From Candidatus Aenigmatarchaeota archaeon (lineage in GTDB: Archaea > Aenigmatarchaeota > Aenigmatarchaeia > GW2011-AR5), in assembly GCA_016187335.1 (NCBI GenBank), contig JACPJW010000001.1, positions 404,170 through 468,169 on the forward strand: a DNA stretch of 64,000 nucleotides, given 5' to 3'. Positions 3,779 through 57,282 of this stretch are shown here, in pieces. The translations under genes and the position numbers were made by a program. Under the pieces are notes generated by a model that saw nothing but the letters and a program-made list of their open reading frames with translations, had not been told where the DNA came from and did not search any database. Numbering within the stretch: the stretch's first letter is position 1; each line of letters starts with the position of its first letter.

Positions 3779-3804
3779 ATTTTTGATTAAACTTTTTAAA
3801 AAGT

Positions 3805-4947
3805 TCACCTGAACTTTCTCAGCTGCCCGCTTTTCTTGGCGGCTTCGTGCCTTTGTACCTTCCCGTATTTTTTCTTTATTTCCCGTTCCAGCTTGCCCAG
3901 AACATCCTGCGCAACGTCAAGAGGCTTCCAGCCCATTGAGTGAGACACGAAAAGCCCCAGCGGCGTGCCTATTCTCGCGCGCATCACATAGCGGATTTTC
4001 TTATCGCCACCGCCATGGTCGTTCTGCCTCTCTACATGAACAAAGAGATATTGTACGCTGTCCATCATCCTCCCGATTTTCTGGACAAATCTTGTTGTTG
4101 CCTCGTCCACGCCGGCAATCAGTTCGCTGCTTTCGCCGTGAAGCCCAGTGACTTGCACGTAAACCTGTTTTTTAGGGCCTGAAACGAGCAGTTCAAGGAT
4201 ATCCTTTGGGGTTATTATTCCCGGCTCGCCGTTCATGACGATAACTTCTTCGCTTTTCTGCAGTAAGTCCAAAGCCCTTTCCAGAGGAGAGTTTTCTTTC
4301 AGTATGGCAGCAGCATGCATGAAAGATTCCACGCCAGCACTTTCAGTGGACATCTTTTCGCTGGCGCCCCGCTCCTTTGTTTTTCCTCTCATCTCCATTT
4401 TTTCTTTTCCTTCGAGCAGCTTTATCATGTCCAGCGTCCCTACGACCCCGAGAACCTTTTGGCCGTCGATAACAGGGACGCGCGATACGTTTTTGTTGAA
4501 CATGATTTTTTTGACTTTCCCGGCATTGTCACCTTTCGACACGCACTCACACTTGACAGCAATATCCCCGCAGGTTTTCTTCGTGTTCATCAGTTTTGAT
4601 GCAACCTTGACAACATCATATTCGGAAACAATACCCACCAGATTCCCTTTGTCCACAACAGGAACAGCCCTTAATCCCGTGTTCAGTAGGAGTTCTATGA
4701 TTTTCTGCAAGTCATGCTCCGGCGAAGCAGTGGAAGTGCTCGTTACGTAGTTCTCAACCTTTGTTGACTGTATGTCTATGTCCTTTGTAACAATGTTTTT
4801 CAATTCAAGCAGCCCGAGAACATTCTTCCCTTCAACGACAGGAAGCCGGTGGATATTGTATTTTTTCATCTTGGCCAATGCCGTGTTCAATGTGTCGCCC
4901 CTTCCGCAGGTTATCACGTTTCTGGTCATGATTTCGCTTACTTTCAT
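3805..4947 (-). CDS. CBS-domain protein (tandem CBS pairs plus C-terminal domain)
   Basis: 380 aa; repeated CBS-like segments (RLPVV, RAVPVVD, RVPVID with hydrophobic cores). Confidence 0.7.
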   Translation of the reverse strand: MKVSEIMTRNVITCGRGDTLNTALAKMKKYNIHRLPVVEGKNVLGLLELKNIVTKDIDIQSTKVENYVTSTSTASPEHDLQKIIELLLNTGLRAVPVVDKGNLVGIVSEYDVVKVASKLMNTKKTCGDIAVKCECVSKGDNAGKVKKIMFNKNVSRVPVIDGQKVLGVVGTLDMIKLLEGKEKMEMRGKTKERGASEKMSTESAGVESFMHAAAILKENSPLERALDLLQKSEEVIVMNGEPGIITPKDILELLVSGPKKQVYVQVTGLHGESSELIAGVDEATTRFVQKIGRMMDSVQYLFVHVERQNDHGGGDKKIRYVMRARIGTPLGLFVSHSMGWKPLDVAQDVLGKLEREIKKKYGKVQRHEAAKKSGQLRKFR

Positions 4948-6335: not shown

Positions 6336-6944
6336 TCAAGGCTTATGTCTTGTAATAGCGTAGTAGGTCACGTCTCCTTCGTTATCCACAATCGCCCATA
6401 ACATCCTTGCTCGTATGTTGTGGGCAAGCCTGACAGAGCGCGAAAGTTCCTGGAACGACATGGTGAAATCCTCCGGCACCGAGAAAACTATCCATTTCGT
6501 GTGCTCTTTGGCGGATTTCGGCCCTTTCTTCAGCTGCACGCCCCTTTCATACACGCGGAAGTCGCAGCCGAACTTGAATCCTGTCCTGACAAGCAGCCCG
6601 CGCTCCCTGAGGTCTTCGTAAACGCGGTAGCGCTCCGTGAACCTTTTGTCCAGAGCAGAAGAATGCCTGAACAGCTCGTCGAATGTTATTTGTTTCTTGC
6701 TGCTGTCAAAGACCCTTATCCTGCCGCGCTTCAGCAGCAGGCACGCTTCTACCAGAGCCAGTTCAAGCCTGTCAGGAAGAATTTTGCCGTAATAGCCGGG
6801 CTCGTAAACGCTTTCAAAGTTTTTCCATGCAACTGCTTTGTTCTCTTCCAGCGTTGTATCCACAACTTCTTTGAAAGGCTCCGGCTCCACGTATTCCGGT
6901 CTATCCTCTTCAGAATCATGCTTTTTCTTGGACATTTTGAACAC
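6336..6944 (-). CDS. endA: tRNA-splicing endonuclease subunit
   Basis: 202 aa; GFKFGCDFRVYERG and EHTKW segments match the EndA catalytic-domain fold (Tyr/His/Lys region). Confidence 0.7.
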   Translation of the reverse strand: MFKMSKKKHDSEEDRPEYVEPEPFKEVVDTTLEENKAVAWKNFESVYEPGYYGKILPDRLELALVEACLLLKRGRIRVFDSSKKQITFDELFRHSSALDKRFTERYRVYEDLRERGLLVRTGFKFGCDFRVYERGVQLKKGPKSAKEHTKWIVFSVPEDFTMSFQELSRSVRLAHNIRARMLWAIVDNEGDVTYYAITRHKP

Positions 6945-7743: not shown

Positions 7744-7980
7744 TGGGAAGGGAGGGATTTCCAGAACTTTTCATCGTTTTCCTCGAAGAACATCAGTTCT
7801 TCGGTATCTCGGAGAACTATCGTTCTCCGCAGATGATCGAACTTTTCTGAAAAGTTCGTTTGGACCCTCGACATTCCCGGCGTAGCACCAATCAAGTGCT
7901 ATGCTCCACGGTCTTCAGCCGTGTGCTCTCCCAGGCTTTGCCAACCGAAAAAATCATTCTCGGTTTTGAGCTACCTTCCC
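7744..7980 (-). tRNA. tRNA-Phe (anticodon GAA) with three putative introns (D-loop, variable loop, T-loop)
   Basis: Minus-strand acceptor GGGAAGG/CCTTCCC with discriminator A; D-stem GCTC/GAGC with AGCCUGGGA loop; anticodon arm CACGG-CUGAAGA-CCGTG; exons sum to about 73 nt; T-loop junction uncertain. Confidence 0.5.
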
Positions 7981-8402: not shown

Positions 8403-8521
8403 CGCCCCGGGACGGACTCGAACCGTCGACCTTCTGCAATTAGTCAAGAAATCCAAAAACTTGCTTGACTGTTAACAGCCAGACGCTTTAGGCGTCTATC
8501 TACCTGCTGAGCTACCAGGGC
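8403..8521 (-). tRNA. tRNA, anticodon unresolved, with D-arm intron and a second 27-nt hairpin intron
   Basis: Minus-strand 5' GCCCTGG TAGCTCAGCAGGTAG and 3' GACGG-TTCGAGT-CCGTC-CCGGGGC-G; removing a 19-nt hairpin restores D-stem GAGC; two parses give 73-nt exons but neither yields a canonical anticodon loop. Confidence 0.5.
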
Positions 8522-9431: not shown

Positions 9432-12146
9432 TTAATCCAGGAAATCGCCCTTCTTCAGCTTATTAGGAAGGTAGGTCTCGGACATGAACTTAAGGCCGCG
9501 GTGCGACAAAGCTTCTATCTCGGCTTTTATTCCTTTTTCTATCATCAGGTTGATTTCCTTCTTCCATCTCGGGTTCTTGCTAAACCACTCGTAGTTGAGT
9601 AGTTCCTTCGCGCGCTTTATGTCAACTTCCTTGCATTTTATTGTCGCTTTTTTCAGGTCATACTCAAATATATCCGATATAGTAAGACCTATGTATCTGG
9701 CTTCCGGTGTCGCAATCCGATCTGAGACGTGAGCTAGGCTTATGGATCCGGATTTGATAACTGAATAAATATAGAAGCCGTACGAATCACTGTCGCAGCA
9801 TACATATACAGGCAGCTTGTGATCTTGGTTCAGCCTTTGTATCAGCAGCCTTGTTCCGCGTGATGGCTGCCCGCCTGTGCCGATCAAAACGCACTTCTGT
9901 TTCTGCCAGAACTTGTCCTCATGAAGCCGCTCAAAGCCTGCGTTCTTCTCCACGACCAAGACAAAGTCCGCGTTGACTTTTTTGAAATCTATTTCATCCA
10001 CGGTGCTCGGTATGGACCATCCCCCGCTTCCGAGCTTTGACCAGTCTATGCTGTCGCCGCGGTCTTCAATAATAACGTTGCCGGCGACAATGCCCTTTCT
10101 GTCGGTGGTGAGGTGCAATTGCTCGCGCAGAACGTCTATAGCCACTTCTATGTCAACAATTATAGGGTCAGAATTATGTAGAATTATAAATCCATTACCA
10201 CCAATGAAATTCTCAGTAGGTTCGACTGAAAGATCAACTGTATATTCAGGAGTTGGAGCGTCATTTATTTCAACTATCTTGTCCCACATAATGTCACTAT
10301 TAGCTATGGTTTCAAGTTCGGATACCAGCTGTAAATCTGGAGAATACTTTTGTAACTGCATCAAGGCGTTATATAACACAGGTCTGCTTATCGATTCGTT
10401 TTTATTTTCTATATAACTCCATGAAAAGTGGTTCCATTCAACACGATCCTTACAGGACTTTCTGACTTTTTCTACCAATTTCCCTATGTTTGGTATCCTG
10501 TCAGAAGATACGTCGTGTTTCCGCGGCTTACTGAATCTTTTATCATTGATTATTTCAGCCATCAATTTTACATCTTCTCTATTACCTATTCTAATTTCAT
10601 ATGCGTTATGGTGATTAGGATTTTGGACGCTTCTTTTATAGCGATAAATTCTTGCAAAAATTCCAAGCCTAAGCAGTAAAAATACCAATCCGTTAGCCAG
10701 CTTTTCGCTAGTTGTGTGGTACCTTAATCTAAATTTTGGAAGAAAAGTACTACCGTCTCCAAGCATAAACGAGAAAAGAAACATCTGTATACAATTTTCA
10801 GGTGAATCAAGCAAAACACGCGGTATTTCTTTATTCCATGCTCTGCAAGGCTTATACCCAATAACATAAGTCAATATGTGACTCAAAGTATCGTAACCTA
10901 CATTTAGCTTATAAACTCCATCTTTACCTAAACGTATCTTTCCGCTTACACAGCTTTTACCAAATGATTTTTCAAAGCAAATCATAAACTGCTTGAGAAG
11001 CTCTGAAGATTTGTTAGAAATAGCTACATGGTATGATTTTCGTGGTTCAAAAAGTGAATGCGAGCCTTCGCTCAAAAGAAGCCCTAGTACAAATCCTAAA
11101 TTTTCATCTTTTTTTATTAAAGCGTTGTAATAGTTCTTTGCACCCCTTCTTCCAATTTTTATTTTAGGAAGCAGATCTGAAATATCAATTCCGGTCGTTT
11201 TTACGACTTTAATTGGAATTGTTTTCCAGTTAATCCAGTTGGCTTTAACGTCAGACCATACATTCTTGTATCCGAAGTCATTTGAAATATTTTTTAGCTT
11301 ATCATTACCTATAAGCCTGATTATTTCTTTTATCGTGTCTTTATCCGATTTTATGTAAAATTCTTTTAATACACTTTCAGGGCAATTTTCAATAAGCTTT
11401 TCTAAAATATTTATATGATCAGAATTAACACCGACTTCTATTTTTCTTGGGATGGCTATCCAGTCTCCTATCTTTAGTTCTGATGTTTTTATGGATACAG
11501 GTTTTCCTTCAGAATTTGTAAACAAGCTGTGAGATTTAGTTACTTTGACACGCCTGCCACTTGATGTGATTATTTCCTTTACAATGTTAGGCGGGTGTTT
11601 CATTACCATCAGAACTTTCTGCTCCTTAATCCTGTAATTTTCATCGAAAGCGCAAACCTTAATGTCGCCAACTAAAATCTTCTTTTTATTACCATCATCA
11701 TAAATAATTCTCCCAAATTTTTCAGCATGGTCTACGACTTCGCTTGCTTGAGCTATTCTGAGTTCATCGTTTATTCTTACCAACAAAGGTTCATCGGGGC
11801 ATACAGACTCGCTCTGCTCGTCAAAGGTATTCTCGTTGCTGTCCGGCAGTGTCCTTTTCAGGTTGTAGTACATGTCTCGGATGCTGGCATGGATTTTCTC
11901 ATCAATGAGCGATTTACAGAAAGCACCGACCATAAGCGTCTGCATGAACTTCTTGGAGTGCGCGACGTTGAAGTAATACCTTTTTGCTGTCTTGGTGCCA
12001 AGCCTGAGCTGGCCGGTTTTCCTGTCGTAAACTACGTTGGAAAGAGCGCGTATTGGTATCTCTATGTTCGGGTTCTCGCCTTTCTCTATGTCATGCACGA
12101 CTTTCTTGCCCAGAACATTCAGTTCCTTTCTTACGTCTTTTTCCAT
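9432..12146 (-). CDS. top6A: DNA topoisomerase VI subunit A (Spo11-like) interrupted by an intein
   Basis: 904 aa; extein N-part (IPIRALSNVVYD...RDMYY) and C-part (WSKLGSGGWSIPS, Toprim LIGTGGQPSRGTR) match Top6A; central 543 aa has intein/LAGLIDADG blocks. Confidence 0.85.
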   Translation of the reverse strand: MEKDVRKELNVLGKKVVHDIEKGENPNIEIPIRALSNVVYDRKTGQLRLGTKTAKRYYFNVAHSKKFMQTLMVGAFCKSLIDEKIHASIRDMYYNLKRTLPDSNENTFDEQSESVCPDEPLLVRINDELRIAQASEVVDHAEKFGRIIYDDGNKKKILVGDIKVCAFDENYRIKEQKVLMVMKHPPNIVKEIITSSGRRVKVTKSHSLFTNSEGKPVSIKTSELKIGDWIAIPRKIEVGVNSDHINILEKLIENCPESVLKEFYIKSDKDTIKEIIRLIGNDKLKNISNDFGYKNVWSDVKANWINWKTIPIKVVKTTGIDISDLLPKIKIGRRGAKNYYNALIKKDENLGFVLGLLLSEGSHSLFEPRKSYHVAISNKSSELLKQFMICFEKSFGKSCVSGKIRLGKDGVYKLNVGYDTLSHILTYVIGYKPCRAWNKEIPRVLLDSPENCIQMFLFSFMLGDGSTFLPKFRLRYHTTSEKLANGLVFLLLRLGIFARIYRYKRSVQNPNHHNAYEIRIGNREDVKLMAEIINDKRFSKPRKHDVSSDRIPNIGKLVEKVRKSCKDRVEWNHFSWSYIENKNESISRPVLYNALMQLQKYSPDLQLVSELETIANSDIMWDKIVEINDAPTPEYTVDLSVEPTENFIGGNGFIILHNSDPIIVDIEVAIDVLREQLHLTTDRKGIVAGNVIIEDRGDSIDWSKLGSGGWSIPSTVDEIDFKKVNADFVLVVEKNAGFERLHEDKFWQKQKCVLIGTGGQPSRGTRLLIQRLNQDHKLPVYVCCDSDSYGFYIYSVIKSGSISLAHVSDRIATPEARYIGLTISDIFEYDLKKATIKCKEVDIKRAKELLNYEWFSKNPRWKKEINLMIEKGIKAEIEALSHRGLKFMSETYLPNKLKKGDFLD
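10173..11801 (-). mobile_element. Intein with LAGLIDADG homing-endonuclease domain inside top6A
   Basis: Begins with Cys after ...DEQSESV, block B GRRVKVTKSHSLFT, LAGLIDADG-like LGFVLGLLLSEGS and FLFSFMLGDGS, ends GFIILHN followed by Ser; region is A/T-rich relative to exteins. Confidence 0.7.
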
Positions 12147-15392: not shown

Positions 15393-15473
15393 AACTTTTT
15401 CCTAAAAAGTTCTTTTTGATTAAACTTTTTCCTAAAAAGTTCTTTTTGATTAAACTTTTTCCTAAAAAGTTTA
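15393..15473. repeat. Tandem array (about 2.7 copies) of 30-bp unit AACTTTTTCCTAAAAAGTTCTTTTTGATTA
   Basis: Direct repeats read from sequence; each unit contains the palindrome AACTTTTT-CCT-AAAAAGTT; lies immediately upstream of the zinc-ribbon gene start. Confidence 0.85.
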
Positions 15474-21261: not shown

Positions 21262-21981
21262 TCAGATTAAGTCCAGATTTATGACGGTTTTTGTTATGAT
21301 CTTGCCGTTTTCTTCCGTTTCCGACGTGCCTTTGCTTTCAATTATGATTGAGTGGTCAAGGCCGGCGCTTTTGACCTGGTCTGAAGTGAGCACAAGAGAA
21401 TAAACCCTTATAGTCTGCGTTTTCAGCGGCACATATCGCAGCGTATAAGATGTCAGGTACTTGTTTTCGTCAAGCTTCACGCTCTTGACGCACAGGATGC
21501 CTGCGTCGTCAGAGCCCCATGCCCCTTCCGAAGCCGTGCACGTGCTGTTCTTCAGCGGTATCTCCGCGCCCGTGGCGTATATCGTCCCTTGCGTATCTGC
21601 GTCGAGCTGGATTACCCAGCCGTTCGGGCTGCTGTCTATTTTCACGATGCCTGACGCCGTGATTTTCAGCTGGTCTCGTCCGCCGGTGTTTGCAACTGTC
21701 TTTATCTTGCTGTCCAGGGTTTTCATGAACTGCTCGCTGCTCTGCAGCAGCGAGACGTCCTTGTTTTTCTGTATAAGGGGTATTCCCCAAAGATAGACGG
21801 ATCCCACGATGCCGATCAGTATCCCGCTCAGGAGTATCGCCGTGACAGCCTGTTCCTGGCCTTTAGAGGAGAAAAACCAAGGTTTTTCTCCCTCTACCCT
21901 CTTTTCCTTATTATTTTTTGATAGAACTTTTTTGTAAAAAGTTCTTCTCATTCCCTTATTAGAAATATTATTTGACATCAA
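21262..21981 (-). CDS. Pilin-like protein with class III signal peptide
   Basis: 239 aa; SSKGQEQAVTAILLSGILIGIVGSV; true start uncertain, an AACTTTTTT-AAAAAGTT palindrome sits in the first codons. Confidence 0.5.
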   Translation of the reverse strand: MMSNNISNKGMRRTFYKKVLSKNNKEKRVEGEKPWFFSSKGQEQAVTAILLSGILIGIVGSVYLWGIPLIQKNKDVSLLQSSEQFMKTLDSKIKTVANTGGRDQLKITASGIVKIDSSPNGWVIQLDADTQGTIYATGAEIPLKNSTCTASEGAWGSDDAGILCVKSVKLDENKYLTSYTLRYVPLKTQTIRVYSLVLTSDQVKSAGLDHSIIIESKGTSETEENGKIITKTVINLDLI

Positions 21982-22491: not shown

Positions 22492-22577
22492 GAACAATAC
22501 ACCACATATCCGTTTTGATAGAACTTTTTTGAAAAGTTCTCTTTTATTATATTTGCAAAAGCGGTATAAATAGGTTT

Positions 22578-25598: not shown

Positions 25599-25750
25599 TT
25601 CAAATACACCTCGTTAATAGAATTTCTTTCCATGCACGCTTTCATTTTTGACGCAACTTTTTCCTAAAAGTTGCCGTATACTTTCATGCACATACATAGA
25701 AGAAGCTAATCTTTAAAAGGGTTGCGGTGCGGCTTAGCGTGTCACACAAT

Positions 25751-26331: not shown

Positions 26332-27312
26332 TTAGCTTCCATCACCCTTCTTTGCTGCTCTGACAATGTCCCGCTTTGTCATCTCCTTCAGCTCATCGGC
26401 AGGAATAACCGGGATTTCCAGTTCCATTCTTTTCTTCGTGACAACAATGACGGGTTTTTCGGTTATTTCTGAAAACGCCAGCATATATCCCTCGTTCTTC
26501 TCCACTCTTTTCTCGTTTTCTTCAGCATCGGAGAATACCAGAAAACGCTCCTTGTCATGCGTTTTGGCAATGATGTTGAAAGGCGCCTGGTAAACAAAGG
26601 AAGTTCCAAAGCCCTTCCTTTTCAGCTCTTTTGATATTGCCCTTTCAAATGCAGTCCTCGGCTCTTTGCCTGCCTCTTCAAAAGAGAAAGAAGTGAAGTC
26701 AATGCTTCTCGTTACGGAGCCCAGCAGCCGCTCCATTTTCTTCGCTATAACATATTTTGATTTCATCATTTTCCTTTCATGTTCGTAGACGTTCTTCTTT
26801 GTCGTGCCCAGTTTTTCCGCCAGTTCGCTCTGAGAGAATCCCCTGCCCTCTCTGGCATCCCGCAGCAGTTCTGGATCCACTTCGGCAAAAAAGCCGCCCC
26901 TGAACCTGTAAATCAGCGGGTTTATGTTGTGCACAAGAATATTTTCAAGCGTCTTAGGCGTGAAGGTGGGTATATCAAACCTGTCGTATATCACATTGTC
27001 ATGGAGCTTCTCGCGCCTTGTCCAGATGCCTACCAGGGCGGGCGAGGCGTCCAGATTTGATGACAGCGTTTTCAGGTTGTCTGATTGCTCTTCCTGGAAA
27101 GAATCAACGTTCTCAAGAACCTTCAGCAGAATCACTTCCTGCTTCCTGGCTATTATGTCAAAGCACCCGCTGTATTCGCTGTAATCGTAGTCAGACCTTT
27201 CCAGGATACGCCCGATTTCCTCCCTTAGCATGCATAACGTTTTCGGGAAAACTTTAAAACAATAATATCCAAGCAGATATTCAAAGAGCCAATTCAAAAG
27301 AGCTTGAAGCAC
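26332..27312 (-). CDS. HTH (XRE-like) transcriptional regulator with extra domains
   Basis: 326 aa; helix-turn-helix GRGFSQSELAEKLGTTKKNVYEHERKM in the middle of the protein. Confidence 0.6.
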   Translation of the reverse strand: MLQALLNWLFEYLLGYYCFKVFPKTLCMLREEIGRILERSDYDYSEYSGCFDIIARKQEVILLKVLENVDSFQEEQSDNLKTLSSNLDASPALVGIWTRREKLHDNVIYDRFDIPTFTPKTLENILVHNINPLIYRFRGGFFAEVDPELLRDAREGRGFSQSELAEKLGTTKKNVYEHERKMMKSKYVIAKKMERLLGSVTRSIDFTSFSFEEAGKEPRTAFERAISKELKRKGFGTSFVYQAPFNIIAKTHDKERFLVFSDAEENEKRVEKNEGYMLAFSEITEKPVIVVTKKRMELEIPVIPADELKEMTKRDIVRAAKKGDGS

Positions 27313-27332
27313 TTTGTGCTTCGTTCGGCTAT

Positions 27333-27491
27333 GGGCCGGTAGCTCAGTGGTAGAGCACCTGTCTTATACGACGTGTTTTCTTAATTGGAAAAAGAAAACA
27401 TTGCTAAGCCAGCAGGGGGTCGAGAGTCCGATACAAACTTTTCCAAAAAGTTTGATCAAAAGGGAAAGTTGCGGAATCCTCTCCCGGCCCA
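27333..27491 (+). tRNA. tRNA-Ile (anticodon UAU) with anticodon-loop intron and T-loop intron
   Basis: GGGCCGG-TA-GCTC-AGTGGTA-GAGC-A-CCTGT-CTTATA then ~42-nt intron, A-GCAGG; 3' end CTCTC-CCGGCCC-A; exons sum to about 72 nt; T-loop junction ambiguous. Confidence 0.6.
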
Positions 27492-28827: not shown

Positions 28828-28940
28828 GGGCTTGTAGTCTAGAGACCCTTTAGAAAAAGCGTCTACGAAAAGGGTTGGAAAATGGTTATGACGTCGCCTT
28901 CACACGGCGAAGGTCGGCGGTTCGAATCCGCCCGAGCCCA
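28828..28940 (+). tRNA. tRNA-Val (anticodon CAC) with 40-nt D-loop intron
   Basis: GGGCTTG-TA-GTCT-AG [intron 28843-28882] TGGTTA-TGAC-G-TCGCC-TTCACAC-GGCGA-AGGTC-GGCGG-TTCGAAT-CCGCC-CGAGCCC-A; exons sum to 73 nt. Confidence 0.8.
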
Positions 28941-28993
28941 TAGCAACTTTCTGGAAAAAAGTTGCATTTAAGCATTACGATATTAGTGGAAAT

Positions 28994-35903: not shown

Positions 35904-38900
35904 TTACTTTATTTTCTTTATCTCTATACCTATTTTCCTGCCTTCAAAGTCCAGTTTTTCCCCTTCCGCCTTCGCGAACACGACCTTCGCCGCCCCCACT
36001 TCGTTCTTTATTTCTTTTTCCCATTTCTTCAGTTCCCCGGCCCCTTCTATTTTCAAGGCAATTTTGTCCATGACAACAAGCCCTGATTTCTTGCGCATAT
36101 CCTGCACTTTTCTGACAACCTCGCGGAGCAGGGCCTCTTTTTTCAGCTCGTCGGTGAGCAGCGTGTCCAGTTCCAGCTTGCCGCCGTCAAAGGGAACGCC
36201 ATTGTTCGTGTTTGCAAAAACAGCGGCTTTGACATTGCACATATTCTTTATTATTTCTGCAAAAGGCTTGAGATTCTCTTTGCTGTCCACTGTAAGCTTT
36301 GCCAGGGGCCACCTTATTTTTATGTTGCTTTCATGCCTTTGCGAGTTGGATGCTTCGACAAGGTTTTTTACGATATTCATGGCTTTCTCCGCCTTTGCGC
36401 TGATGTATTTTGAATCGTACTTAGGCCAGTCCCTGGTATGCACGGATTCCTTTTCGCCGAGGATTTCGAGGTTTATCTGCTCGGCGAGATACGGCGTTAT
36501 AGGCGCTAAAAGCTGCGATGTTTTTTCTGCTATCTCGTATAAGGTGTAAAAGGCCGCTTCCTTGTCTTTCCCTGAATACGCCGGCCATACGCGGTCCCGG
36601 ATCAGCTTTATGTACCACCTTGAAAAGTCGTTTACTAGGAAATCATGCAGCTCTGTTACGGCCTTGTGGCCGTTGTAGCTGCAGAAATGCTGGGTGCAGT
36701 TCTTTATGGTGGTGTTCAGGCGCGAAAGAATCCATTTGTCCTCTATATTCAGTTTTTTTGGCATTGAACCGCTTGACGCGTCGGTCTGTTTCGGTTTTGT
36801 TGCGTAGGTCTTCACGAAATTAAAGCTGTTTTCTATCACAATAAGAGACCTCGCAATGGCTTCAACGTCCGGCCACTTGAAGTAGAAGTCATCCCACGGC
36901 GCGCTTGACAGCAGATAGAAGCGAAGCACGTCCCGGCCGTATTTTTTTATAATGTCCTCCGGCTCGACAATATTTCCTTTGCTCTTTGACATTTTCACGC
37001 CGTGAGCGTCAAGTATGAAGCCGTGGAAAAGTATGTTCGTGAAGGGCTTCTCATCAAATGTTATTACCGACGTTATCAGCTCGGCGTTCCACCAGCCTCT
37101 GATTTGATCCGGGCCTTCTGTCTGGAAGTCGCTTGGCCACAGTTTCTTGAACAACGCCTTGTTTTTCGGGTAGCCGAGGGATGCCCATCCGGCAAGGCCG
37201 GCGTCAAACCAGACATCAAGGACATCGGCTATCCGTTTCATCGCAGAGCCGCACCTGCATTTCAAAAAAACGTTATCAATGTAAGGCCTGTGCAAATCAC
37301 GGGGTATTTCCGGCAATTCGTCAGCGGAGCCGATGACCTTGACGCTTTCGCATTTCTCGCATATCCATATCGGCAGCGGTATGCCCCAGTAGCGCTGCCT
37401 TGATATAGGCCAGTCGCCGAGGTTTTCAAGCCAGTTGTTGAACCGTTGCTTTGCCCATTCAGGGTACCAGTTCACATTCTTGTTTTCCTTGATGAGCTTG
37501 TCCCTTATCTTCGTCACGCGGAAGAACCACTGCGACACGGATATCAGCAGCAGGGGAGTGCTGCAGCGCCAGCATTGCGGGTAGTCGTGCGTTATCGTTT
37601 CCTCCTTCAGCAGCAGGTCTTTTTCCTTCAGCAGTTCAATTATTTTTTTGTCGCTTGCCTTGACAGGATTTCCAGCAAAAGCACCGCATTTCTCGTCAAA
37701 AGTGCCGTTGATTTTCACCGGAGATATTATGGGCAATTTGTTTTCCAGACCGACTTTGTAGTCCTCCTGTCCGTGCCCGGGGGCGGTGTGGACAAGCCCG
37801 GTGCCGTCTTCCATGCTCACGTACTGCTCTGAAAGCACAACCTTGTGCGCGCCTTTGAGCTGCTGCTGGAATGTAAAAATGTCCCGGAGCGGATGCTCGT
37901 ATTCTGTCCCAGCCAGCTTTTTTCCGGGAAACGTTTCCACAATGCTGAATGGCAGTCCGGCTTTCTTCATAACAGCTTCAAGAAGCGGCTTTGCCAGGAT
38001 AAGAAATTCAGTTCCACCAGAACTTTCCACCATTACCTTGACATATTCGTGCTTCGGATGCGCCATGATGCCTGTATTAGCTGGTAACGTCCACGGCGTT
38101 GTCGTCCATATGACCAGGAACACGTTTTCTTGTCCTTTCACCGGAAACTTAACATAAATAGAAGGGTCCTTGGCTTTGCTGTATTCTATTTCGTTGTACG
38201 CAACGGCTGTTTCGCAATTATGTGTCAAGAAGCCGTTAGTTATAAAGTTGTGATGAGTTTCAACTGCTATATCACATACTTTCCGTTTCCCCTTATATTT
38301 TATAGAATTTATTTCATCCCAAATAAATCCGTCTCTGAGGTCTTTTGCAGCATTTTTTAACCATGCATCGAATGCAGGGGTATATTTGGCAGCACGAACT
38401 GACTTAGACTTGCCATAAACCACATGCCTTACATAAAGTTCAGGTAAGTTAAGCATAATTGCGATTTTGCTGCAAGGGATCTTAGAATGTCTTAGTGATA
38501 AGATCCTACCTTTCAATTTTCTGTATTGTTTCTCAAGTGATTTTTTGTACAGAAGATAGCCCAAAACATGCGAAGCCCTGATTTTTCTGTATTTACAGTA
38601 CTCGTATCCTAAATACCGTATGAATTTAATGAGGTTGTAATCGTTGCAATCTATACTGATAGTGGTCTTCGATTTTTCTATTTTATTAACAATATTTCTT
38701 TCTGTTTTTATTTCTCCTGTCGATACCCCAAACTTATTGATAAGCGCGCATATCTGTTTTGCAAATTCCATCCCGTTTTCTTCTAGATGTCTATTTTTTG
38801 TAAGGTAAAGCCTCAGGCATTCAAATCCCTTTCCATATTTTCTGGGGCTTATTATCTGGAGTTCGCTTCCGAAGTAAGATGCCAAAAATTCCCTTGTTAA

Positions 38901-40421
38901 TTTTTTATTGGACTTTATCCATTTTGGCACAAATGTCTTTGTTTCCGTCTTTTTTCCTATAGGACAGCCTAGCGTTATAAGCAAAACAGCCAAAGACAAA
39001 GAATAACATCTCATGGATGTTGTAAATCCCTTTATTGCTCTGCCATTTACGACAGATTTAGTTGGCACGGTTGAAATATCCGAATGGCTAAAGCCAAGAA
39101 TCTTTAGGTCTTTTTGGATTTCTTTTAAATCTTCCTCTTTTCCGCAGAAATCTATGCCAAATACCGGGAATTTTCTGTTTTTAGATGTACGTACAACAAT
39201 AGATCCATCACCAAAAATATGACCTGCCAATCTGGCTAAAATAAATGATTTTGTAGATTTACTGTGAAGAGGTATCAGTTCTTTATCTTTCAATTCATTT
39301 ATTATAGAATCGTAGCGCGTAAACGTATTTACTTTTAAAATTTTTGCTACCCATGATTTTGAAACTCTTATTTTGAAGGCGTTTTGTATTTCTTTAATAA
39401 TTTTAGTATATGAATAGTTATTTTTTCTAAGTTCGGCAACAAAGTTCTTAATTTTAATTTTCGAATGACTTGTAAGGTCGTTAAATTTATGCAGATCTCT
39501 GAAAACTATATTTTCTAAGTTCTGCAAAGTAAACATTACATTATTCTCATTTACAAGAGCTTTGCCTGTTTCCGTAATTTCCGGCAGTCTGCTTTCCACA
39601 TTATTATATACGGCCACTTTGGTTCCTATTCTGAGCTTAGAAAGAGTCATCCATCCATCTTGCGTCCAGAACGGATGATCACTCGAAGCGATTAGTTTCT
39701 TTCCTGTTAGCGTTTTTACAAGAAATACATTATCTTCCAATTCCACATAGCCCAGAGGTTTTGCCGTAGTTAGAAGTTTAGAATTAGTATCAACAGCTAC
39801 AACCGTGTTGTGTTTCCAGCAGCCTTTCAGTTCTCCTATTTTTCTTGTTCCCCCTTCAACAAGAATAGTAGAATTAGGATCAACGCATCTCGGGCATACA
39901 TGCACCGGATAAAGACCCTTGTAGAGCAGTCCCTTGTCGTAAGCGGTCTTGAACGTGTGCCACGCGCCCTCTATGTACTCGTTGTTGTACGTTATGTAAG
40001 GGTTGTCCCAGTCCATCCACACGCCAAGATTCAGGAACTGGTTATTCATGACAGAAATGAACTGGCTGACGAACGCCCTGCATTCCTTGTTGAATCTCTC
40101 GACGCCTAGCCTTTCTATATCAGCCTTTGATTTTATCTCCAGTTTTTGCTCGACCTTGTTTTCTATCGGCAGCCCGTGGGTGTCGTAGCCCGGCTGGTCC
40201 CATACGTCGAAGCCGGACATGCGCCAGAATCGGATGTAGCTATCCTTCAATATTTTGTTCCAGGCAGTGCCTATGTGTATGTAGCCCGTGGCGTAAGGCG
40301 GGCCGTCAAGGAAGTAGAATTTCTTCTTTCCTTTTCTTTTTGTCTTGGCCTTCTGGTAAATGCCGTCTTTTGCCCAGAACTCGGCGATTTCTTCTTCTTT
40401 TTTCTTGCGGCTTTCTATCAT
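35904..40421 (-). CDS. ileS: Isoleucyl-tRNA synthetase interrupted by an intein
   Basis: 1505 aa; HIGH (YIHIGT), KMSKS (KMSKSKGN), WPISRQRYWGIPLP; 557-aa insertion between CPR and CETA of the zinc-binding region. Confidence 0.9.
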   Translation of the reverse strand: MIESRKKKEEEIAEFWAKDGIYQKAKTKRKGKKKFYFLDGPPYATGYIHIGTAWNKILKDSYIRFWRMSGFDVWDQPGYDTHGLPIENKVEQKLEIKSKADIERLGVERFNKECRAFVSQFISVMNNQFLNLGVWMDWDNPYITYNNEYIEGAWHTFKTAYDKGLLYKGLYPVHVCPRCVDPNSTILVEGGTRKIGELKGCWKHNTVVAVDTNSKLLTTAKPLGYVELEDNVFLVKTLTGKKLIASSDHPFWTQDGWMTLSKLRIGTKVAVYNNVESRLPEITETGKALVNENNVMFTLQNLENIVFRDLHKFNDLTSHSKIKIKNFVAELRKNNYSYTKIIKEIQNAFKIRVSKSWVAKILKVNTFTRYDSIINELKDKELIPLHSKSTKSFILARLAGHIFGDGSIVVRTSKNRKFPVFGIDFCGKEEDLKEIQKDLKILGFSHSDISTVPTKSVVNGRAIKGFTTSMRCYSLSLAVLLITLGCPIGKKTETKTFVPKWIKSNKKLTREFLASYFGSELQIISPRKYGKGFECLRLYLTKNRHLEENGMEFAKQICALINKFGVSTGEIKTERNIVNKIEKSKTTISIDCNDYNLIKFIRYLGYEYCKYRKIRASHVLGYLLYKKSLEKQYRKLKGRILSLRHSKIPCSKIAIMLNLPELYVRHVVYGKSKSVRAAKYTPAFDAWLKNAAKDLRDGFIWDEINSIKYKGKRKVCDIAVETHHNFITNGFLTHNCETAVAYNEIEYSKAKDPSIYVKFPVKGQENVFLVIWTTTPWTLPANTGIMAHPKHEYVKVMVESSGGTEFLILAKPLLEAVMKKAGLPFSIVETFPGKKLAGTEYEHPLRDIFTFQQQLKGAHKVVLSEQYVSMEDGTGLVHTAPGHGQEDYKVGLENKLPIISPVKINGTFDEKCGAFAGNPVKASDKKIIELLKEKDLLLKEETITHDYPQCWRCSTPLLLISVSQWFFRVTKIRDKLIKENKNVNWYPEWAKQRFNNWLENLGDWPISRQRYWGIPLPIWICEKCESVKVIGSADELPEIPRDLHRPYIDNVFLKCRCGSAMKRIADVLDVWFDAGLAGWASLGYPKNKALFKKLWPSDFQTEGPDQIRGWWNAELITSVITFDEKPFTNILFHGFILDAHGVKMSKSKGNIVEPEDIIKKYGRDVLRFYLLSSAPWDDFYFKWPDVEAIARSLIVIENSFNFVKTYATKPKQTDASSGSMPKKLNIEDKWILSRLNTTIKNCTQHFCSYNGHKAVTELHDFLVNDFSRWYIKLIRDRVWPAYSGKDKEAAFYTLYEIAEKTSQLLAPITPYLAEQINLEILGEKESVHTRDWPKYDSKYISAKAEKAMNIVKNLVEASNSQRHESNIKIRWPLAKLTVDSKENLKPFAEIIKNMCNVKAAVFANTNNGVPFDGGKLELDTLLTDELKKEALLREVVRKVQDMRKKSGLVVMDKIALKIEGAGELKKWEKEIKNEVGAAKVVFAKAEGEKLDFEGRKIGIEIKKIK
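38217..39887 (-). mobile_element. Intein with LAGLIDADG homing-endonuclease domain inside ileS
   Basis: Starts CVDPNSTILVEGG, contains ILARLAGHIFGDGSI, ends FLTHN followed by Cys; A/T-rich relative to exteins. Confidence 0.7.
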
Positions 40422-51228: not shown

Positions 51229-51492
51229 GCGCCCGTAGCTCAGCTTGGCAAACTTTGCTACTCCAAAGTTTGATCAAAAGAGGTCTGTGACGAAGTTTGA
51301 GCAAATAGAGCACTTCTCTCCTAGAGGTGAATTGAGCGCAACGGAAGACTGAAGTTTCTGAAGAAACTTCAGCCGGTTTTGTGCGATGATAATTTCCTGA
51401 AGTGAGGAAGGGGCCGCGCGTTCGAATGCACCCTTTCTTGGAAAGAAAGCGTGCACGGAAAGAAAAGGGTGCCGAATATCGCGCCGGGCGCG
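51229..51492 (+). tRNA. tRNA-Arg (anticodon CCU) with three introns
   Basis: Exons GCGCCCG-TA-GCTC-AGCTTGG / TAGAGC-A-CTTCT-CTCCTA / A-GGAAG-GGGCC-GCGCG-TTCGAAT / CGCGC-CGGGCGC-G; introns about 51249-51305, 51324-51404, 51428-51479; exons sum to 74 nt. Confidence 0.8.
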
Positions 51493-56404: not shown

Positions 56405-56509
56405 GCCGGCGTCGCATAATCTGGTGGTGCACTGATTGCATGCGAAGCAAGTGTATGTCTCGAAAACCAGCGGGCTCTGCCCATGCAGGTTCAAATCCTG
56501 CCGCCGGCG
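56405..56509 (+). tRNA. tRNA, anticodon unresolved, probably intron-containing
   Basis: Acceptor GCCGGCG/CGCCGGC with discriminator G; T-arm GCAGG-TTCAAAT-CCTGC; internal 73 nt could not be folded into a unique cloverleaf. Confidence 0.5.
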
Positions 56510-57022: not shown

Positions 57023-57282
57023 GCCGGGATACCGAAATCAGGTCTCTCAAGATAAGAGTGAAGAAATTCACGATGATTGCCTTTCATTGGTAAACGGGCC
57101 AGTGCAGTTCCGCTTCAAAGAAGCGGTGCGGCCAACCTTGAGAGCTGGTGCGCCTTCGGCGCGTGGGGGTTCAAAGCACCCTTTCTTTTTGCAAAAGAAA
57201 GCGTGCGCGGAAAGAAAAGCAACTTTTCAGAAAAGTTGCATCAAAAATAAAGGAAAGGGCTGTGAAATTCCCTCTCCCGGCG
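57023..57282 (+). tRNA. Class II tRNA, tentatively tRNA-Ser (UGA), with three putative introns
   Basis: Acceptor GCCGGGA/TCCCGGC, discriminator G; anticodon arm CCAGT [intron] CTTGAGA-GCTGG; variable arm GCGCC-TTC-GGCGC; T-arm GGGGG-TTCAAA [~93-nt intron] T-CCCTC; exons sum to about 87 nt. Confidence 0.5.

Follow-up and report, generated by a model that had tools for sequence, protein, structure and literature searches.

A twice-interrupted tRNA-Ile gene with an encoded UAU anticodon in an Aenigmarchaeota archaeon

Introduction

How might an archaeon read the codon AUA when its isoleucine tRNA is encoded with U rather than C at position 34, leaving TiaS no cytidine to convert into agmatidine? 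This question is raised by a tRNA gene within a 64-kb stretch of DNA (the window) that belongs to a metagenome-assembled genome of a DPANN archaeon of the Aenigmarchaeota. Genes for a thermosome, both subunits of topoisomerase VI and Nop5/fibrillarin, together with those for mevalonate-pathway kinases and several aminoacyl-tRNA synthetases, identify the window as archaeal. Topoisomerase VI subunit A (9432-12146, minus strand, 904 aa, with a LAGLIDADG domain) is interrupted by an intein. The splicing endonuclease of the window and the protein encoded beside the tRNA gene each match, at 100% identity, a protein of a "Candidatus Aenigmarchaeota archaeon" whose genes lie on a contig of 918,042 bp, and these matches place the source in DPANN. 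We estimate a probability of about 0.85 that the locus encodes the functional AUA-decoding tRNA-Ile(UAU) of this Aenigmarchaeota archaeon, a tRNA that is named "Ile3" in tRNAscan-SE 2.0.

Structure of the interrupted gene

According to the first-pass annotation, a gene for tRNA-Ile whose UAU anticodon is genomically encoded occupies positions 27333-27491, and these boundaries prove to be exact. Reading the plus strand puts G1 at 27333 and the discriminator base A73 at 27491, and ARAGORN identifies the locus as tRNA-Ile(tat) after splicing. From 27333 the sequence runs GGGCCGG-TA-GCTC-AGTGGTA-GAGC-A-CCTGT-CTTATA, and the interval ends with CTCTC-CCGGCCC-A at 27491. The loop assignment made at the same time, CTTATA with TAT at positions 34-36, also holds, as the anticodon loop reads C32-T33-T34-A35-T36-A37 and the triplet at 27365-27367 is conserved in all six orthologues described below. 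The gene is composed of the following parts, of which the T-loop intron, although it lies inside the interval first annotated, had not been mentioned.

27333-27368, plus strand: exon 1, tRNA positions 1-37 (from the sequence and from ARAGORN on the spliced product)
27365-27367, plus strand: anticodon TAT (UAU), positions 34-36, unchanged in 7/7 orthologues
27369-27410, plus strand: intron 1, 42 nt, at position 37/38, in a BHB motif (hand reading, BHB enumeration and folding)
27411-27432, plus strand: exon 2, positions 38-59 (ARAGORN on the spliced product and BHB enumeration)
27433-27477, plus strand: intron 2, 45 nt, a T-loop intron at the non-canonical site 59/60 with a strict hBHBh' motif (folding and BHB enumeration)
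27478-27491, plus strand: exon 3, positions 60-73 (from the sequence and from ARAGORN on the spliced product)

Exon 1, which is the same in orthologues L130, L131 and L123, holds the 5' strand of the acceptor stem (GGGCCGG), the D-arm, the 5' strand of the anticodon stem and C32-U33-U34-A35-U36-A37. Exon 2 continues with A38, the 3' strand of the anticodon stem (GCAGG), the variable loop GGGUC, the 5' strand of the T-stem (GAGAG) and the T-loop bases U54-C55-C56-G57-A58-U59, and exon 3 supplies C60, the 3' strand of the T-stem (CUCUC), the 3' strand of the acceptor stem (CCGGCCC) and A73. CCA is not encoded at the 3' end.

Both introns match the definition of a BHB motif, with two 3-nt bulges on opposite strands, a 4-bp helix between them and helices on either side; cleavage was placed after the second base of each bulge. 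For intron 1, the outer helix is the anticodon stem CCUGU/GCAGG, and in the central helix CUUA/UAAG loop bases C32-A35 pair with intronic UAAG. The two bulges read UA|C and CC|A, and the inner helix starts weakly, with a single G-C pair and a 2x2 mismatch, before continuing for 10 bp. The outer helix of intron 2 is the 5-bp T-stem GAGAG/CUCUC, followed by the 4-bp central helix UCCG/CGGA, bulges AU|A and AU|C of 3 nt each, and a 10-bp inner helix formed by CAA(A)CUUUUCC/GGGAAAGUUG; this second motif is already visible in the unconstrained MFE fold. No box C/D guide motifs were found when either intron was inspected by eye.

Removing both introns in silico gives a 72-nt product that ARAGORN calls tRNA-Ile(tat) and that has a complete cloverleaf, with acceptor, D, anticodon and T stems of 7, 4, 5 and 5 bp, a 7-nt anticodon loop containing U33 and a purine at position 37, and a 7-nt T-loop. 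Moreover, the precursor structure that combines this cloverleaf with the two BHB motifs uses standard pairs only and has an energy of -53.1 kcal/mol, compared with -55.1 kcal/mol for the MFE structure, whereas shuffled sequences average -40.0 kcal/mol (z = -3.5 for the locus).

Conservation in related genomes

Orthologues of the tRNA gene were located by way of the protein-coding gene that lies next to it.

26332-27231, minus strand: neighbor gene for a PDDEXK_19/HTH protein, 100% identical to the Aenigmarchaeota protein HYW26_02590

Six relatives were gathered in this way, L123 from a metagenome scan and the others from a protein search and the corresponding contigs, with neighbor proteins that are 82% (L130), 71% (L131), 69% (L123), 59% (L132), 51% (L133) and 48% (L134) identical to that of the window. 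Just upstream of the PDDEXK/HTH gene, all six carry a tRNA gene whose acceptor stem is unchanged, and in every one the TAT anticodon, the 37/38 intron and the ends of that intron are conserved. The substrate for agmatinylation, C34, is absent throughout, position 34 being T in the window (27365) and in all six orthologues. When the seven spliced sequences are aligned, 126/126 cells contain standard pairs, covering all 21 pairs of the cloverleaf, and compensatory double changes are seen at three pairs (28:42, 29:41 and 50:64); when the 3' partners are shifted by one to three columns, pairing falls to 39-52%. The D-loops of L132 and L134, which contain nested introns that a simple BHB solver could not resolve, were masked in this alignment. 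The first-pass annotation had recommended that the fold be confirmed with covariance models, and the single-intron orthologues indeed score 52.6-60.8 bits against an Rfam tRNA gathering score of 29, with CUUAUA aligned in the loop. As judged by comparative sequence analysis, the tRNA-Ile(UAU) gene is real and is under selection as a tRNA with a TAT anticodon, which adds the Aenigmarchaeota to the DPANN groups shown to have an encoded UAU anticodon.

The T-loop intron, on the other hand, is absent from 6/6 orthologues and is thus a recent gain, while L132 and L134 carry long D-loop introns. This variation among relatives implies that D- and T-loop introns are lineage-specific gains, whereas the 37/38 intron is fixed, and a series of seven orthologues in which introns come and go around a fixed one should be useful for studying intron gain. 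The T-arm of L130, the closest relative, is uninterrupted and reads GAGAG-TCCGATC-CTCTC, exactly as in the predicted spliced product of the window gene, thereby confirming the splice sites of intron 2.

A 7-bp hairpin (GAAGCAC-ttt-GTGCTTC, 27306-27322) is present 10 nt upstream of the 5' end of the tRNA, and also in L130. The same hairpin is found in L123 (about 4467-4483, minus strand) as GACGCAC-aaa-GTGCGTC, which amounts to a compensatory change. It lies in the spacer between the tRNA gene and the divergently oriented HTH/PDDEXK gene, and so could act as an operator or form a leader structure.

AUA codons and a proposed decoding pathway

AUA is the commonest isoleucine codon in the 31 confident genes of the window, where it accounts for 482 of 962 Ile codons (50%) and occurs 39 times per 1000 codons, and it is likewise the top Ile codon in the thermosome gene. 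The thermosome aligns without gaps to the Thermococcus thermosome (1q3r). At the 22 AUA positions, 1q3r has isoleucine 13 times, valine four times, leucine three times, and phenylalanine and methionine once each. Isoleucine, valine or leucine is therefore present at 20/22 positions, a substitution pattern like that of AUC and AUU, while AUG positions are matched by methionine in 10/18 cases. AUA thus means isoleucine in this organism, and an efficient decoder is needed. Isoleucine identity for the tRNA itself is suggested by its anticodon, by this codon test and by the likeness of its acceptor and D arms to those of other tRNA-Ile genes.

Two proteins encoded in the window are relevant to how such a decoder could be made.

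6336-6935, minus strand: splicing endonuclease EndA, an alpha-type catalytic subunit of about 200 aa (Pfam tRNA_int_endo_N and tRNA_int_endo)
35904-40421, minus strand: isoleucyl-tRNA synthetase (IleRS), 1505 aa, interrupted by an intein (Pfam tRNA-synt_1, Anticodon_1, DUF5915 and Intein_splicing)

In the pathway that we propose, the 159-nt precursor would be transcribed and would fold with each intron in its BHB motif. Both motifs would be cut by EndA, whose gene lies 20 kb away and whose sequence matches the NCBI entry "tRNA-intron lyase [Candidatus Aenigmarchaeota archaeon]" at 100% identity; because both motifs are close to the strict form, any type of EndA should accept them. An RNA ligase would then join the three exons into the 72-nt tRNA, CCA would have to be added post-transcriptionally because it is not encoded, and IleRS would charge the product with isoleucine, the specificity of the synthetase at 35904-40421 being predicted from its set of domains. 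On the ribosome, U34 would pair with the A of AUA, and no conversion of cytidine to agmatidine by TiaS would be required. Ways in which reading of AUG might be avoided include an unmodified U34 to which IleRS and the ribosome are adapted, the situation in M. mobile (PMC3575796), and pseudouridine at position 34, as in eukaryotes (PMC9602550). The first-pass annotation took the encoded UAU to imply a different strategy for decoding AUA, and it is reasonable to suppose that the codon is read without a C34-to-agmatidine step. We further infer that the genome lacks both tiaS and a CAU-type tRNA-Ile2; a second copy of the tRNA-Ile(UAU) gene may be present elsewhere in it.

Relation to known tRNA-Ile(UAU) systems

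Replacement of the TiaS/agmatidine route by tRNA-Ile(UAU) is already known for such archaea, and the locus is in this sense a correct but ordinary example that leaves knowledge of AUA decoding unchanged. [quoted passage not shown] The first-pass description of this anticodon as uncommon in archaea agrees with those surveys, but it is overstated for DPANN, where there are published cases and where most of the at least 49 archaeal genomes considered below are placed.

Among the closest published cases is ARMAN-2 (Candidatus Micrarchaeum acidiphilum, Fujishima et al. 2011, PMC3239211), which, like the source of the window, is a DPANN archaeon with a UAU anticodon and a 37/38 intron in a strict hBHBh' motif. 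ARMAN-2, ARMAN-4 and ARMAN-5 were reported in 2011 to have tRNA-Ile(UAU) and to lack TiaS and tRNA-Ile(CAU), the ARMAN-2 pre-tRNA-Ile(UAU) with its 37/38 intron was used as a splicing substrate, and a 59/60 intron is documented in ARMAN genomes too, in tRNA-Cys (PMC3239211). There are differences, however: ARMAN-2 belongs to the Micrarchaeota and its endonuclease is of the fused epsilon2 type, whereas the window comes from the Aenigmarchaeota and encodes a separate alpha-type subunit, and the ARMAN-2 gene has one 25-nt intron, while the window gene has C55 and a pair of introns of 42 and 45 nt. [quoted passage not shown] Mycoplasma mobile also reads AUA by means of an encoded UAU, in tRNA-Ile2(UAU), within a reduced genome that has no C34-modifying enzyme (Taniguchi et al. 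2013, PMC3575796). It is the only case in which the mechanism has been worked out, U34 being unmodified and an IleRS change (Arg865) allowing the enzyme to accept UAU, but it is bacterial, has no introns and has a different IleRS C-terminal architecture (PMC3575796).

Eukaryotic tRNA-Ile(UAU) is similar to the window gene in its anticodon and in always having a 37/38 intron, and that of C. merolae has additional ectopic introns, one of them in the T-arm. In yeast, the intron of tRNA-Ile(UAU) is required for formation of pseudouridine 34 and 36, and an intron in the T-arm blocks formation of pseudouridine 55 by Pus4. Eukaryotes differ in their splicing machinery, and by analogy intron-dependent modification of a DPANN tRNA is suggested only as a lead.

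To gauge distribution, one genome per species was scanned with a degenerate tRNA-Ile-like 5' half ending in CTTATA, which returned at least 120 loci. At least 49 archaeal genomes have such a tRNA-Ile(UAU) gene, and bacterial matches, assigned by record title, number at least 71. Among the matches listed, 39/49 archaeal loci carry DPANN phylum labels (Woesearchaeota 15, Micrarchaeota 14, Iainarchaeota 3, Nanoarchaeia 3, Pacearchaeota 2 and Aenigmatarchaeota 2), a further eight are labeled only "archaeon" and two are Methanosarcinales, while the bacterial loci are mostly from Patescibacteria/CPR. ARAGORN calls an intron in most of the archaeal matches listed and in none of the bacterial ones. 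Many of the listed archaeal matches that ARAGORN leaves uncalled (for example L038, L040, L056, L063, L069, L083, L100, L108 and L117) show a second insert, in the T-loop.

These comparisons bear on the possibility that the archaeon is at a redundant stage, in which tRNA-Ile(UAU) is functional but tiaS and tRNA-Ile2(CAU) have been kept, so that two systems share the reading of AUA. A precedent is provided by some bacteria that have LAU and UAU tRNAs side by side (Taniguchi et al., PMC3575796). We consider such redundancy improbable here, because the ARMAN lineages have tRNA-Ile(UAU) with neither TiaS nor tRNA-Ile(CAU) (PMC3239211), tRNA-Ile2(CAU) is missing from N. equitans and K. cryptofilum (PMC8450103), and DPANN genomes are strongly reduced. 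In addition, no TiaS-like Pfam domain was detected in the 40 window ORFs that were scanned, which include all ORFs of at least 350 aa, and no CAU anticodon occurs among the seven tRNA genes recognized in the window, which spans some 7% of a 918-kb contig.

The T-loop intron, C55 and a dispersed repeat

All seven tRNA genes in the window bear introns. The six others, several of which share features with the tRNA-Ile gene, are as follows.

7744-7980, minus strand: tRNA-Phe(GAA), with inserts in the D-loop, variable region and T-loop (by hand)
8403-8521, minus strand: tRNA gene
28828-28940, plus strand: tRNA gene
51229-51492, plus strand: tRNA gene
56405-56509, plus strand: tRNA gene
57023-57282, plus strand: long tRNA of uncertain isotype, with three introns (by hand)

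Hand reading also shows a D-loop intron in tRNA-Val(CAC) and three introns, in the D-loop, anticodon loop and T-loop, in tRNA-Arg(CCT). The T-loop introns of tRNA-Arg and of the long tRNA at 57023-57282 share the sequence GCACCCTTTCTT...GAAAGAAAGCGTGC.CGGAAAGAAAAG.

U55 is near-universal in tRNAs and is the site of pseudouridine 55. The T-loop of the mature tRNA-Ile instead has U54-C55-C56 (C55 at window position 27428) in place of the conserved U54-U55-C56. C55 is also found in L130, U55 is present in the five more distant orthologues, and C55 occurs in just 2/95 other tRNA-Ile(TAT) genes. The fact that L130 has C55 without the intron means that the substitution predates intron 2 and belongs to the mature tRNA. 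In the precursor, C55 pairs with a G of the intron, which makes the central BHB helix of intron 2 fully Watson-Crick. The same combination is seen in tRNA-Phe(GAA) of the window, whose T-loop TCCAAAT likewise has C55 and a 59/60 intron, with a C55-G pair in the BHB central helix. C55 may simply be tolerated.

The core of intron 2, CAAACTTTT-CC-AAAAAGTTTG-ATCAAAA, belongs to a dispersed palindromic repeat with the consensus xAACTTTT(T)-loop-(A)AAAAGTTx' followed by [A/G]TCAAAA. Within the 64-kb window, the repeat 16-mer has nine matches with at most two mismatches where 0.24 are expected, and a looser hairpin pattern has 14 matches against an expectation of 1.35, about 12 of which are real copies. 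The outer stem pairs co-vary among copies (GAAC/GTTC, GCAAC/GTTGC, CAAAC/GTTTG and TAAAC/GTTTA). Copies in the window and in the relatives are located as follows.

27437-27461, plus strand: core of intron 2, AACTTTT-loop-AAAAGTT then ATCAAAA (pattern search and alignment)
3781-3804, 7841-7855, 21916-21942, 22513-22537, 25646-25671, 28946-28962, 51252-51279 and 57222-57246: further copies
15394-15470: tandem array of three 30-nt units upstream of NMD3
L130 about 1500-1535, L131 about 2760-2790 and L123 about 4295-4330: copies in relatives

Eight copies occupy short spacers just after the 3' ends of genes, one of these being between convergent genes, and four of the approximately 12 window copies are inside tRNA introns (those of tRNA-Ile, tRNA-Phe, tRNA-Arg and the unassigned tRNA at 57023-57282). 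In L130, L131 and L123 a copy lies 2-3 nt after the 3' end of the tRNA-Ile gene, and a tRNA-Ile(UAU) gene from Micrarchaeota has a near-identical copy within its T-arm intron (L036, 5715-5728). The idea that the repeat AAAAGTTTGATCAAAA is a BRE/TATA promoter was rejected, as clear TTTAAA/TTTATA boxes are found elsewhere upstream of genes. Its position after gene 3' ends, including that between convergent genes, is a better fit to a terminator-like role than to a promoter, and the repeat, which has T-runs on both strands, probably represents either a terminator-like hairpin that works in both directions or a small mobile palindrome. A terminator-like palindrome may accordingly have been co-opted into intron sequence or inserted as such.

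We tentatively propose, at rather less than even odds, that intron 2 is a very recent gain from the dispersed repeat, that DPANN tRNAs gain introns through repeat capture of this kind, and that C55 is tolerated. If true, this would mean that a tRNA without pseudouridine 55 is tolerated as an essential tRNA of the lineage. Transposition of tRNA introns has reportedly been described in Thermoproteales (Fujishima 2010). The intron-gain model developed for Caldiarchaeum (PMC3293823) is similar to the situation here in that non-canonical introns differ between close relatives and different tRNAs of one genome share intron sequence, as they do in the window. The shared module of the window is, however, a palindrome of about 25-30 nt that otherwise follows gene 3' ends and is not recombinase-bearing, unlike the elements in the mobile-DNA models for Caldiarchaeum and Thermoproteales. 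In DPANN, alpha4-type endonucleases that contain an extra loop have been associated with greater disruption of tRNA genes (PMC5829648).

If the repeat had inserted into the T-loop and U55 had been changed to C55 during decay of the gene, the locus would be a pseudogene and AUA would be decoded by another tRNA. Such a history is compatible with the rarity of C55 among tRNA-Ile(TAT) genes and with the fact that the insert, a member of a dispersed repeat family, is missing from all six relatives, yet we regard it as very improbable. The insert sits in a perfect hBHBh' motif (5-bp outer helix, 4-bp Watson-Crick central helix and 10-bp inner helix), and its excision restores the exact T-loop of the intron-less L130. 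Since L130 has C55 without a T-loop intron, the substitution is not insertion damage; C55 and a 59/60 intron recur together in tRNA-Phe(GAA) of the window, and all other positions of the tRNA-Ile cloverleaf are intact. Moreover, the junction of exon 2 and intron 2, including C55, was assembled independently in L001, and the 3' part of intron 2 was assembled independently at the start of L002, both from other runs of the same SRR series.

Anticodon assignment and detection by tRNA finders

The functional reading depends on the triplet at positions 34-36, and we therefore enumerated every BHB-compatible intron in 27333-27491 and every subset of these introns. The sole product with a normal three-base anticodon is Ile(tat); the remaining five ARAGORN calls are "tRNA-???" with the four-base anticodon "tata" and involve weaker BHB motifs. 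An alternative fold that places a different triplet at 34-36, which the first-pass annotation had named as grounds for abandoning its assignment, was not produced by any BHB-compatible set of splices. Another placement of intron 1, for which the weak start of its inner helix (one G-C pair, then a 2x2 mismatch) might leave room, can be dismissed as having almost no probability, because the enumeration gave only Ile(tat) with a normal anticodon, intron 1 has a canonical central helix and canonical bulges that are retained in six orthologues, and Rfam places CUUAUA in the loop of the single-intron orthologues at 52-61 bits.

Standard tools do not report the gene from the unspliced sequence. ARAGORN finds no tRNA gene in the whole unspliced 64-kb window (0/7), and Rfam at the gathering threshold finds three of the seven, one of them (tRNA-Val) with a wrong 5' end, and misses tRNA-Ile(UAU). 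A permissive Rfam run returns only a 20.7-bit partial match in which the 5' half is correct and the T-arm is false. For tRNA-Ile(UAU) these failures are caused by its two introns and do not count against the gene. As a consequence, the decoder of the organism's commonest Ile codon goes undetected by both ARAGORN and Rfam at the gathering score, as do at least three further multi-intron tRNA genes in the window, and automated tRNA inventories of such DPANN genomes would look incomplete, with AUA seemingly left without a decoder.

Assembly is also affected at this locus. Logan contigs L124-L129 (SRR12113383-SRR12113431), which are from the same organism, all end about 130-230 nt upstream of the neighbor gene, in the stretch that holds tRNA-Ile, and L001, the only contig read to its end, stops at the intron 2 repeat. 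Breakage of contigs at this stretch implies that such tRNA genes are often truncated or missing in fragmented DPANN bins.
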